Shown here piece after piece: positions 5,152 through 11,527 of a stretch of 64,000 nucleotides of DNA (positions within the stretch are counted from its first letter, which is position 1; each line of letters starts with the position of its first letter). Source of the DNA: Escherichia coli. Its GTDB lineage: Bacteria; Pseudomonadota; Gammaproteobacteria; Enterobacterales; Enterobacteriaceae. The position numbers and the translations under genes are program-made. The notes under the pieces were generated by a model. That model saw only the letters and a program-made list of their open reading frames with translations. It ran no database searches and was not told the DNA's origin. The stretch is taken from NCBI RefSeq assembly GCF_048403405.1, contig NZ_CP183129.1. One strand, 5' to 3'.

Positions 5152-6026
5152 GTATTGATCCGACGGGTTACACCCTCGCCCATGAGCATCTGCATATTGA
5201 TCTCTCCGGCTTTAAAAACAACGTGGACTGCCGCCTTGATCAGTATGCGTTCATTTGCCAGGAGATGAACGACCTGATGGCCCAGGGCGTGCGTAATGTG
5301 ATTGAGATGACCAACCGTTACATGGGGCGAAATGCGCAATTTATGCTCGATGTGATGCACGAAACTGGCATCAACGTGGTGGCCTGTACCGGTTATTACC
5401 AGGATGCGTTTTTCCCGCAACATGTGGCGACCCGCAGCGTACAGGAACTGGCGCAGGAGATGGTCGATGAAATTGATCAGGGTATCGATGGCACGGAACT
5501 GAAAGCCGGGATCATCGCGGAGATCGGCTCCAGCGAAGGGAAGATTACGCCGCTGGAAGAGAAGGTGTTTATTGCCGCCGCGCTGGCACATAACCAGACC
5601 GGACGCCCGATCTCCACGCATACGTCGTTCAGCACGATGGGGCTGGAACAACTGGCTCTGTTGCAAGCCCACGGAGTTGATCTTTCGCGCGTCACCGTTG
5701 GTCACTGCGATCTGAAAGACAACCTCGACAACATTTTGAAGATGATCGATCTCGGCGCGTATGTGCAGTTCGACACCATCGGCAAGAACAGTTACTACCC
5801 GGACGAAAGGCGCATTGCGATGCTCCACGCGCTACGTGACCGTGGTTTGCTGAACCGCGTCATGCTGTCGATGGATATTACGCGCCGCTCCCATTTAAAA
5901 GCCAACGGTGGTTATGGCTATGACTATTTATTGACCACCTTTATTCCGCAATTGCGCCAGTCAGGATTCAGTCAGGCCGATGTGGATGTGATGTTACGTG
6001 AAACTCCCTCTCAATTTTTCCAATAA
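5148..6026 (+). CDS. php: phosphotriesterase homology protein (amidohydrolase superfamily)
   Basis: 292 aa ORF; N-terminal HEHLHID metal-binding HxH motif. Confidence 0.85.
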
Positions 6027-7717: not shown

Positions 7718-8803
7718 ATGAAGACGTTTCCTCTGCAAAGCCTGACGATTATTGAGGCGCAGCAAAAGCAGTTTGCGCTGGTGGACACGATTTGCCGCCA
7801 TTTTCCTGGTAGCGAATTTCTTACCTGCGGTGATTTGGGATTAACGCCGGGACTGAATCAACCGCGCATTACCCAGCGTGTGGAACAGGTGCTGGCTGAT
7901 GCATTTCACGCACAGGCTGCGGCGCTGGTACAGGGCGCGGGTACTGGCGCGATCCGTGCGGCGTTGGCGGCTTTGCTCAAACCGGGGCAGCGTCTTCTGG
8001 TGCATGACGCGCCGGTTTACCCGACGACTCAGGTCATTATTGAGCAGATGGGGCTGACGCTTATCACTGCTGATTTCAATGACCTGTTGGCACTGAAGCA
8101 GGTTGTCGACGAGCAACAACCAGATGCCGCGCTGGTGCAGCATACGCGCCAGCAGCCGCAGGACGGGTACATTCTGGCAGATGTGCTGGCAACGTTGCGC
8201 TCGGCTGGCGTTCCTGCATTAACCGATGACAACTATGCGGTGATGAAGGTAGCGCGAATTGGCTGCGAATGCGGGGCAAATGTCTCGACTTTTTCCTGCT
8301 TCAAGCTGTTTGGGCCGGAGGGTGTTGGCGCGGTGGTAGGCGATGCTGATGTTATTAACCGTATTCGCGCCACGCTCTACTCCGGCGGCAGCCAGATTCA
8401 GGGCGCTCAGGCGTTGGAAGTCTTGCGTGGGCTGGTGTTTGCGCCAGTGATGCACGCGGTGCAGGCGGGGGTATCTGAACGGTTGCTGGCCTTGCTCAAC
8501 GGTGGTGCAGTTCCGGAAGTGAAAAGCGCCGTCATTGCCAATGCACAGTCGAAGGTGTTGATTGTCGAGTTTCATCAGCCGATTGCCGCCAGAGTGCTGG
8601 AAGAGGCGCAAAAGCGCGGTGCCTTGCCTTACCCGGTTGGTGCAGAGTCGAAATATGAAATTCCACCGCTCTTTTATCGACTTTCCGGAACGTTTCGCCA
8701 GGTGAATCCGCAACTCGAACATTATGCGATTCGTATTAACCCAAATCGCAGCGGTGAAGAGACGGTGCTGCGGATTTTGCGTGAGAGTATTGCCAGTATT
8801 TAA
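7718..8803 (+). CDS. yhfS: uncharacterised enzyme, putative PLP-dependent
   Basis: 361 aa ORF, last gene of the cluster. Confidence 0.8.
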   Translation: MKTFPLQSLTIIEAQQKQFALVDTICRHFPGSEFLTCGDLGLTPGLNQPRITQRVEQVLADAFHAQAAALVQGAGTGAIRAALAALLKPGQRLLVHDAPVYPTTQVIIEQMGLTLITADFNDLLALKQVVDEQQPDAALVQHTRQQPQDGYILADVLATLRSAGVPALTDDNYAVMKVARIGCECGANVSTFSCFKLFGPEGVGAVVGDADVINRIRATLYSGGSQIQGAQALEVLRGLVFAPVMHAVQAGVSERLLALLNGGAVPEVKSAVIANAQSKVLIVEFHQPIAARVLEEAQKRGALPYPVGAESKYEIPPLFYRLSGTFRQVNPQLEHYAIRINPNRSGEETVLRILRESIASI

Positions 8804-8843
8804 TCTTGTGCATGATGTTTTCGAAAAGAATGCAGAAATAAAT

Positions 8844-8869
8844 ACGCCCTCGGGTAACCCCGAGGGCGT
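8844..8869. terminator. bidirectional hairpin between convergent yhfS and yhfL
   Basis: Perfect inverted repeat acgccctcggg-taac-cccgagggcgt. Confidence 0.55.
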
Positions 8870-8909
8870 CAGGCAATTAAACCGGTGTTAGCCGATTTCT
8901 GTCAGAGAC

Positions 8910-9077
8910 TTACTGTGCAGTAGGACCGCAACCGCCAATGATTTTAGAAATAGAAATTGCCGGGTGCAGCAGGTAGTCGTAAGAGCAGTTCTTATCACGG
9001 TTTTCAATATGACCAGTACATGCAGTTAACGTAGCCAGTACTGCGCCTACCAGTGCAACTTTAATAAATTTGTTCAT
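8910..9077 (-). CDS. yhfL: small lipoprotein
   Basis: 55 aa minus-strand ORF MNKFIKVALVGAVLATLTAC... with LTAC lipobox; below ORF-track length cutoff. Confidence 0.75.
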   Translation of the reverse strand: MNKFIKVALVGAVLATLTACTGHIENRDKNCSYDYLLHPAISISKIIGGCGPTAQ

Positions 9078-9293
9078 TTACATTCCCTATGTATTATATA
9101 TTAATTAATATTCATTGATTATATGAATATAAGCAGACTGCTCATTAAGAACGATACAGGAATATTCAATTAGCGTCAGTGAGCGATTGATTTAATTTTG
9201 TAAGTCGCTGTAACGGTGAATATAACCCATTAGCAGACAATATTTATTAAGGGGGTATCTTTTTATCTGCTGAATATATAAAGAGAGTTGTAA

Positions 9294-9320
9294 ACGAAAA
9301 AGGCCAGACTTCTCTGGCCC
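9294..9320 (-). terminator. terminator after cysG
   Basis: Hairpin ggccaga/tctggcc followed by a T-run on the minus strand. Confidence 0.5.
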
Positions 9321-9328
9321 TGGTTAAA

Positions 9329-10702
9329 TTAATGGTTAGAGAACCAGTTCAATTTATCGCGCAGGCCAACAACCCGACCAATAATAATTAGCGATGGACT
9401 GTTCATTTGCTGCGCCAGTTCGCCCAGCTGCGTGAGCGTACCGTCAATCACGCGCTGCGTGACTGCCGTTCCGTTTTCGACAATTGCCACCGGCATTTCG
9501 CCAGGCATACCGTGTTCAATCAGCTTTTGCTGAATAGTCGCAGCCTGATTCAGCCCCATATAAAACACCAGCGTCTGTTTTTCTGCCGCCAGGTTTTCCC
9601 AGTCCAGTTCGCCACCGGTTTTTAAGTGTCCGGTAATTAAGCGTACGCTCTGGGCATAATCGCGATGCGTGAGCGGAATACCCGAATAGGCAGAGCAACC
9701 AGAAGCTGCGGTAATACCCGGAACCACCGAGAACGGAATACCCGCGTTGCACAGTGTTTCCAGCTCTTCGCCACCACGGCCAAAAATAAACGGATCGCCA
9801 CCTTTCAGCCGCACCACGCGTTTGCCTTTTTGCGCTTCCCGCAGCAGGATCTGGTTTATCTCTTCCTGCGGTACGCAGTGGTATCCCGCGCGTTTGCCGA
9901 CGAAAACGCGATCCGCATCGCGGCGTACCAGATTCATAATATCGTCAGAAACCAGACGGTCGTAGACCACCACATCTGCCTGCTGAATTTGTTGCAGTCC
10001 TTTTAGTGTCAGCAGCCCGGCATCGCCCGGACCTGCGCCAACCAGCACCACTTCACCGCGATGGTCGAGCGGTTCGTTGATTAACTGTTCGGTCGTTTCA
10101 GTAATGGCTTTCTGATCGTTGTTTGCCAGCGACTGCGCCAGGCGGTCATTAACGAACAGTTTTTCCCAGAAACGGCGACGCTCACCCATCGTGGCGAACT
10201 GTTGTTTCACTCGCCCGCGTAATTGCCCGGCGTATTTCGCCACCTGGCCCAGATGCAACGGCAGCAGTGATTCAAGTTTTTCGCGTAACAGGCGCGCCAG
10301 AACCGGAGAGGTGCCGCCAGAGGAGACCGCGACCATTAGCGGTGAGCGGTCAATAATCGACGGCATAATAAAGCTGGCGGCTTTCGGCGCATCGACCACG
10401 TTACAGAAGATGCGACGAGCTTCAGCGGCTTCACTGACGCGCTGGTTAAGCGCGTCATCATCCGTCGCAGCAATTGCCAGCCAGCAGGTGTCGAGAAGGC
10501 TTTCATCAAATGGCCCTTCGACGAGGGTTAACATGCCTGCATCTGCCCATGCGGTGAACTGTGGAATAAACGCTAATGCATTCACCGTTAAGCGAGCGCC
10601 TGCGTCTAACAGCAACCTTGCTTTGCGTTCCGCGACATCACCACCGCCGACAATCAGACAGTCGCGATCGCGTAATTGGCAAAATATAGGCAAATGATCC
10701 AC
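9329..10702 (-). CDS. cysG: siroheme synthase
   Basis: 457 aa ORF, matches E. coli CysG. Confidence 0.95.
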
Positions 10703-10720: not shown

Positions 10721-11527
10721 TTAACCGGCAGCTGTTTCAGTTTGATTAAATTTGTCCGCAACCGGACGATTCGCTTTCGGCGTAGCATACCAATAACCCA
10801 ATCCCATGAATACGGCACCTGATAAAGTATTACCCAGCGTCACCCACAGCAGGTTATGACCAATACCCGCCAGCGTGTAGGCTTCGCTGTGGTTGCCAAA
10901 CCAGGAGAGGGCGAACAGCGTCATGTTAGCGATGGAGTGCTCGTAGCCGGACGCGATAAATGCCAGCAGACACCACCAGATAGCGATAAATTTCGCCGCC
11001 CCTTCAGTGCGCAGCGCCATCCAGATTGCCAGGCAAACCAGCCAGTTACACAATGCACCTTTGAAGAACAGTACCATTGCCGGTGCAGTGGTTTTTGCCA
11101 GCGCGACGGAGTGAACGATGCTGGTATCTACCGGCAGCAGGCTACCGCCACCCCAGCTATAGAGCATGGCGACAAAGACGGAACCGACCAGGTTACCCAG
11201 CCAGGTTTGCGGCAGGATTGCCCACATTTGCCCGTGGCTGATAGTGCCCGCTTTCACCCCAAAGGTGAGGAACATGGTGTGTCCGGTGAACAGTTCAGAA
11301 CCAGCAATAATGACCAACGTTAAGGCGATACCAAAGGTCGCGCCCATCACCAGAGGACGTACGGACGGGTCGAGCAAATTACCGAGCGTGAAAATCAGGA
11401 TGATCCCAAGACCCACATACGCGCCCGCCATGGCGGAGCTGACCCAGAAGCCGAGCGGGTTATTTGCCGACAGGCGTGCAATGCGCGCAGCGTTAGCCGC
11501 ACACTTATTAATAGTGTCTGTAAACAT
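10721..11527 (-). CDS. nirC: nitrite transporter
   Basis: 268 aa hydrophobic ORF, formate/nitrite transporter family. Confidence 0.95.
   Translation of the reverse strand: MFTDTINKCAANAARIARLSANNPLGFWVSSAMAGAYVGLGIILIFTLGNLLDPSVRPLVMGATFGIALTLVIIAGSELFTGHTMFLTFGVKAGTISHGQMWAILPQTWLGNLVGSVFVAMLYSWGGGSLLPVDTSIVHSVALAKTTAPAMVLFFKGALCNWLVCLAIWMALRTEGAAKFIAIWWCLLAFIASGYEHSIANMTLFALSWFGNHSEAYTLAGIGHNLLWVTLGNTLSGAVFMGLGYWYATPKANRPVADKFNQTETAAG

Follow-up and report, generated by a model that had tools for sequence, protein, structure and literature searches.

The DNA analysed here is a window of 64,000 nucleotides from Escherichia coli (the whole stretch that was presented), and the stretch under study is the intergenic spacer between cysG and yhfL, with yhfL read from the minus strand. 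The genes and terminators of the locus are arranged as follows:

10721-11527, minus strand: nirC
9329-10702, minus strand: cysG
9300-9321, minus strand: intrinsic terminator of nirBDC-cysG, a 9-bp stem followed by a T run
9078-9328, minus strand: cysG-yhfL spacer, 251 bp with 68% A+T, its proximal ~115 bp kept across Escherichia and its distal part varying
8910-9077, minus strand: yhfL, encoding a 55-aa DUF4223 (Pfam) lipoprotein that has a signal peptide with the lipobox LTAC
8844-8869, minus strand: second terminator, after yhfL

The YhfL protein (WP_001031834.1) is identical in every E. coli record examined, and a 601-bp query around the region is 100% identical to strain 118UI and finds matches in 5425 of 5426 complete E. 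coli genomes. A small-ORF reading of the spacer was set aside; the only small frame found there, a 24-aa TTG ORF (9166-9240), is unsupported and lies in the poorly conserved, variable distal part.

The surroundings of yhfL are plastic. The frlABCDR genes are not present between yhfL and yhfS in the strain studied (window 8804-8909), K-12 carries both the frl and the yhf operons, and in O157:H7 frl is present and the whole yhfZ-yhfS operon is missing, so that trpS adjoins frlR. Since yhfL directly faces yhfS in the loci of Citrobacter and E. albertii, frl looks like an insertion; the ancestral gene order is cysG-(bigA)-yhfL facing yhfS...yhfZ. In Citrobacter (L055-L057, 4059-9803) a gene for a BigA-type autotransporter of ~1900 aa sits between cysG and yhfL, and at this position Escherichia has only the 250-bp spacer.

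The 216 bp directly upstream of yhfL (9078-9293) had been picked out as strongly AT-rich by the sequence-only reading, correctly in both coordinates and content. Their A+T content is 70.8%, against 48.8% for the window; they are the most AT-rich 216 bp of the 64 kb, at a level that only 0.05% of all windows of this length reach, and the AT-richness is clearly beyond chance. An A+T content well above average over at least 100 bp, as is characteristic of H-NS-type DNA, is thus present. The high-affinity H-NS nucleation motif, TCGATAAATT, has no match with up to two mismatches in 9078-9293; the nearest similar sites lie at 9061-9070 and 9321-9330 (two mismatches each) and at 9351-9360 (one mismatch, within cysG). 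H-NS binding does not require this motif. In the genomic SELEX tables for K-12 the cysG>yhfL spacer is marked HNS, a result obtained in vitro (Shimada et al., 2014, PMC3946193).

Within and beside this AT-rich DNA the following elements can be placed:

9083-9089, minus strand: ribosome-binding region TAGGGAA, invariant across Escherichia
9093-9098, minus strand: another exact TATAAT, 15 nt before the yhfL start codon
9108-9130, unstranded: perfect palindrome ATATTCAT-N7-ATGAATAT, with arms at 9108-9115 and 9123-9130 and a 7-nt spacer
9111-9113, minus strand: predicted transcription start, 5-7 nt past the -10 and in the downstream palindrome arm, giving a 5' UTR of ~34-36 nt
9118-9123, minus strand: -10 hexamer TATAAT (6 of 6 positions), inside the palindrome and the same as the -10 of the promoter predicted from K-12 genomic SELEX
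9143-9148, minus strand: weak -35 hexamer TTAATG (3 of 6 positions; K-12 has TTAACG), separated from the -10 by 19 nt and not kept in divergent Escherichia
9151-9166, minus strand: conserved block ATATTCCTGTATCGT, lying some 80-95 nt before the yhfL start codon
9217-9223, plus strand: extra heptamer TGAATAT, kept in E. coli and reading as the -10-like TATATT on the minus strand
9271-9277, plus strand: extra heptamer TGAATAT, kept in E. coli

The -10 is identical to the consensus TATAAT, and no -35 close to TTGACA is found at 16-18 nt, the best being TTAATG with 3 of 6 positions at 19 nt. A sigma-70 promoter scan returned no site above threshold here, which is explained by the poor -35 and its 19-nt distance from the -10. 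A perfect -10 can serve together with a poor -35, which lowers the predicted strength and does not exclude a promoter. As for the second TATAAT (9093-9098), a start directed by it would land in the ribosome-binding site, and the hexamer reads TATTTT in divergent Escherichia (L009, L023).

The promoter has a counterpart in the K-12 literature. The RpoD holoenzyme binds the cysG>yhfL spacer of K-12, with a predicted promoter TTAACG-19-TATAAT (genomic SELEX; Shimada et al., 2014, PMC3946193), and an RpoS holoenzyme peak lies in the same spacer (K-12 genomic SELEX, in vitro, 2017; PMC5493296). A 47-bp core (9096-9142) is 100% identical between the strain studied and K-12 MG1655, the -35 differing by one base, and because of this identity the K-12 holoenzyme and H-NS binding data transfer to the strain studied. 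The binding of the yhfL promoter region by RpoD and RpoS holoenzymes and by H-NS is therefore already part of the K-12 literature. A mapped yhfL transcription start was not found in the accessible papers and supplements (the Kim 2012 supplements hold no entry for yhfL or b3369), so the promoter assignment rests on SELEX and sequence.

We consider it probable, with moderate confidence, that 9078-9293 is the promoter and 5' leader of yhfL and that the palindrome within it is incidental. RNA polymerase carrying sigma-70 or sigma-S would recognise TATAAT at 9118-9123 on the minus strand, in spite of the weak TTAATG -35 and the 19-nt spacer, and transcription would start near 9111-9113, giving a leader of ~35 nt that contains the ribosome-binding site TAGGGAA. 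H-NS would bind the strongly AT-rich DNA around and upstream of this promoter and silence or dampen it; that such silencing takes place in vivo is what we infer. Taken by itself the result is small, the promoter of a tiny lipoprotein gene located in H-NS-type AT-rich DNA.

Conservation is unevenly distributed over the spacer. The 47-bp core was found at 5414 places in 5412 of the 5426 E. coli genomes (median one per genome, highest two), with 100% identity in 4057 of the 5414 matching records and at least 95% in 5391. A repeat or mobile element (REP, MITE or IS end) was considered for this DNA and rejected, the core occurring as a rule at one place per genome. The 601-bp query has 90-95% identity in most genomes, while the core is identical in about 75% of them; the lower figure for the longer query arises because the distal spacer (9200-9300) falls into divergent E. 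coli haplotypes with 3-4 nt indels and clustered substitutions. The proximal ~115 bp can still be aligned in divergent Escherichia, out to E. albertii, and the -10 remains recognisable throughout the genus as TATAAT, CATAAT or CATTAT. The block ATATTCCTGTATCGT hardly changes between E. coli and E. albertii, which is more than can be said of the -35 region, and it could be an activator site. By eye, 9-10 of the 14 positions of the RcsAB box fit in this block, which lies outside the palindrome. A comparison by eye with the consensus sites of Fur, ArgR, FNR, CRP, IHF, LexA, MetR, PhoP and RcsAB gave no convincing match.

The palindrome itself had been quoted in the sequence-only reading as attcattgattatatgaatat, a string that is indeed present at 9110-9130, and had been called an imperfect inverted repeat. 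An inverted repeat it is; the imperfection disappears once two more bases on the left are included, which make the repeat perfect. On the yhfL strand it reads ATATTCA-TATAAT-CAATGAATAT and encloses the -10 hexamer: the first T of the -10 is the last base of the upstream arm, the 7-nt centre contains the rest of the hexamer, and the downstream arm covers the predicted start. Of 2000 shuffles of 9078-9293 that preserve dinucleotides, 10.9% have a perfect inverted repeat of their own (arms of 8 bp or longer, spacer 0-12 nt), and the symmetry by itself is not beyond chance for this base composition. The heptamer TGAATAT/ATATTCA occurs in five copies in the region (9108, 9124, 9162, 9217 and 9271) against 0.18 expected; the word was chosen post hoc, however, and five copies of one 7-mer or another are found in 4.5% of shuffles. 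Three of the five copies also read TATATT, a -10-like hexamer, on the yhfL strand. A nested symmetry of four 8-mers (9107/9161 and 9217/9271, 54-bp spacing, centre 9192.5) was rejected as a constrained feature, because the copy at 9161 is missing from K-12 and O157 and indels shift the spacings of the 8-mers among lineages.

In eight E. coli lineages picked across the identity range, the arms of the palindrome are invariant and the central spacer varies at two positions. Beyond these the dyad symmetry decays from 8 of 8 pairs (L009) to 7 of 8 (L023) and 6 of 8 in E. albertii, whose site reads ATATTCAC-ATTATCG-ATGGATAT, with no compensating changes. The regions upstream of yhfL at 36 further loci from other genera are not homologous and hold no such palindrome. 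Conservation had been named beforehand as the test on which the palindrome would stand or fall, and the outcome is divided: the palindrome is conserved within E. coli, and degenerate or absent beyond the species (E. albertii, other genera). Judged from these alignments, the pattern fits the constraint on a promoter core better than that on a symmetric site, and the palindrome appears to be kept within E. coli on account of its overlap with the -10 and the predicted start, and not for the sake of its symmetry. It would then be a by-product of the promoter core and not a separate element, and we infer that no dedicated factor reads it. The earlier proposal of a promoter with nucleoid-protein or regulator binding thus holds for the promoter and for H-NS (K-12 SELEX, 47-bp core identical), and does not carry over to the palindrome as a regulator site, its symmetry being within chance and lost in E. 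albertii.

A different palindrome, (A/G)TGGA-N5-TCC(A/C)T (for example AAATGGAtttcaTCCATTT), precedes yhfL in 14 of 39 loci (L011, L012, L014-L016, L019, L024, L029-L031 and L033-L036), 46-67 nt upstream of the ATG. These loci belong to Citrobacter, Enterobacter, Lelliottia and Superficieibacter, and apart from the palindrome their spacers diverge; Escherichia is without it. Its recurrence suggests a conserved putative regulator of yhfL in the four genera.

A further family of palindromes bears directly on the alternatives to the reading given above. With one mismatch allowed, the pattern ATNTTCA-N6-TGAANAT has just three matches in the window, against 0.22 expected, and all three are exact:

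1344-1363: ATNTTCA-N6-TGAANAT, in tandem with the next, immediately upstream of yhfZ
1368-1387: ATNTTCA-N6-TGAANAT, in tandem with the preceding, immediately upstream of yhfZ
2710-2729: ATNTTCA-N6-TGAANAT, between yhfY and yhfX

Each of them sits in a control region of the nearby yhfZYXW-php-yhfUTS operon, whose product YhfZ is a GntR-family regulator (HTH_41 and YhfZ_C; NCBIfam equivalog). Among E. coli lineages, in Citrobacter and, but for a single mismatch at one site, in E. albertii, their half-sites are invariant and their 6-nt spacers vary, and it is because of conserved half-sites around variable spacers that they look like real operators. From this pattern and their position they are probably the operators of the uncharacterised regulator YhfZ. 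No description of them was found in the searchable literature, and they offer a concrete operator motif for YhfZ and the orphan yhf operon, which is of more practical value than the yhfL promoter. Upstream of yhfZ, E. coli strain C2 (L049 25-150) has an insert of ~110 bp between the trpS stop codon and the hairpin; this GC-rich, REP/BIME-like insert occurs in some E. coli lineages and is absent from the strain studied. It fits the grouping of yhfZ with BIME-associated 'attenuators' (PMC2965389).

Could the yhfL palindrome be an operator as well? A dimeric repressor on ATATTCA-N9-TGAATAT (YhfZ, Nac or another factor) would cover the -10 and the start and so block RNA polymerase, which we regard as possible though somewhat unlikely. 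The inverted half-sites ATATTCA/TGAATAT match those of the yhfZ operon exactly, and the pattern ATNTTCA-N(0-12)-TGAANAT has exactly four exact occurrences in the 64 kb, the three N6 sites and the yhfL palindrome; when sequences are shuffled with their local composition kept, an exact occurrence turns up 4.4% of the time for the window and 0.16% of the time for the yhfL spacer alone. The invariant arms and variable centre within E. coli are also what an operator would show, and yhfL adjoins the yhf operon in the ancestral gene order. The geometry speaks against it, however: all three operon sites have a 6-nt spacer in E. coli, E. albertii and Citrobacter, whereas that at yhfL is 9 nt, and the 3 bp of difference turn the half-sites by about 100 degrees relative to each other, which a rigid dimer should not tolerate. 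Phylogeny also speaks against it. E. albertii keeps the yhf operon with two of the three N6 operators intact and the third with one mismatch, yet its yhfL palindrome is degenerate (ATATTCA-N9-TGGATAT, where the TGAA core is interrupted); in Citrobacter the three N6 operators are all present, yet its yhfL is preceded by an unrelated palindrome and its upstream region holds no YhfZ-type motif; and O157:H7 has lost yhfZ through yhfS, yet its yhfL palindrome is intact. A search in other genera for co-evolution of the yhfL palindrome with the yhfZ operators was negative.

For YhfZ in particular, the operator proposal can be given a historical form, in which YhfZ co-regulates yhfL with the yhfZYXW-php-yhfUTS pathway through a variant operator, ATATTCA-N9-TGAATAT, that was acquired when the promoter was rebuilt after the rearrangement of the locus in the E. 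coli lineage. We hold this to be improbable; if true, it would mean that a GntR-type regulator ties the small lipoprotein YhfL to the yhf pathway.

Nac has a claim of its own. On Nac induction yhfL is the most strongly Nac-repressed gene, at 0.008-fold, and a Nac ChIP-seq peak at 3497156 (U00096.2) is assigned to it (PMC5217608). The spacer's only copy of the Nac minimal consensus, ATA-N9-TAT, lies at 9108-9122 within the palindrome, which together with the strong repression favours Nac as the binding protein. Against this stands the position of the peak, which was converted by way of NC_000913.3 (cysG 3497828-3499201; yhfL 3499448-3499615) with an offset of 1978 between the two versions: on that basis it would fall within the 3' end of cysG, some 270 bp away from the palindrome. 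The consensus is moreover at chance frequency in the window, with 9 copies found and 7.3 expected. Given the distance of the peak and this chance frequency, an action of Nac through the yhfL palindrome appears unsupported. In the 3' end of cysG, ATAATAATTAGCGAT (window 9381-9395) is a one-mismatch ATA-N9-TAT within about 15 bp of where the peak would map.

Two further explanations dispense with a regulator altogether. The spacer might be AT-rich filler left by the rearrangement of the locus, with spurious hexamers and with yhfL expressed only by read-through from cysG. It is specific to Escherichia: the E. coli spacer has no detectable homology to the cysG-bigA or bigA-yhfL spacers of Citrobacter, alignment being confined to the coding parts. 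Its distal half differs strongly from one E. coli lineage to the next, and many -10-like hexamers occur in AT-rich DNA. Nonetheless a strong terminator (9-bp stem, T run) parts cysG from yhfL, the proximal ~115 bp are far better conserved than the distal part, out to E. albertii, and both the RpoD and the RpoS holoenzymes bind the spacer in vitro (PMC3946193, PMC5493296), which leaves this explanation very unlikely. Most improbable of all is a role of the palindrome as an RNA hairpin in cysG read-through or in the yhfL leader that affects termination, stability or translation: an 8-bp stem with a 7-nt loop is possible, and with the cysG terminator just upstream some read-through RNA would hold both arms, but 9060-9135 folds at -6.5 kcal/mol, which is the shuffle mean (z = 0.00; 97 of 200 shuffles at least as good), the stem has one G-C pair and no T run after it, a start past the internal -10 leaves just one arm transcribed, the substitutions of E. 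albertii and L023 do not restore pairing, and an Rfam search of 8600-9600 (E <= 1) returned no family.

The reading of the region as promoter and leader of yhfL, with an incidental palindrome, can lastly be set beside known systems. Operators that lie over the -10 and the start, such as those of LexA and of LacI at O1, repress by blocking RNA polymerase. The yhfL palindrome resembles them in being a 23-bp dyad centred between -10 and +1, whose arms are conserved within the species while its centre varies more; it differs in that E. albertii, the sister species, does not keep the symmetry, which is not beyond chance for this base composition, and in that its binding protein is only hypothetical. 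With the presumed YhfZ operators, found at a distance of 6.4-7.8 kb in the same gene neighbourhood, it shares the inverted 7-bp half-sites and a position 30-50 bp before a start codon; it departs from them in its 9-nt rather than 6-nt spacer and in its restriction to E. coli, the N6 sites being kept as far as Citrobacter. The likeness to sites of the LysR-type Nac consists of an exact ATA-N9-TAT over the -10 and the reported strong repression (PMC5217608), set against a ChIP-seq summit about 270 bp away in cysG and a minimal consensus that is very low in information. Shimada et al. (2014, PMC3946193) defined a set of 'constitutive' sigma-70 promoters of K-12 that H-NS overlaps: although the -35 is TTAATG here and TTAACG there, and that paper is silent on the palindrome and the start site, the same locus is listed among them and its 47-bp core is identical to that of K-12.
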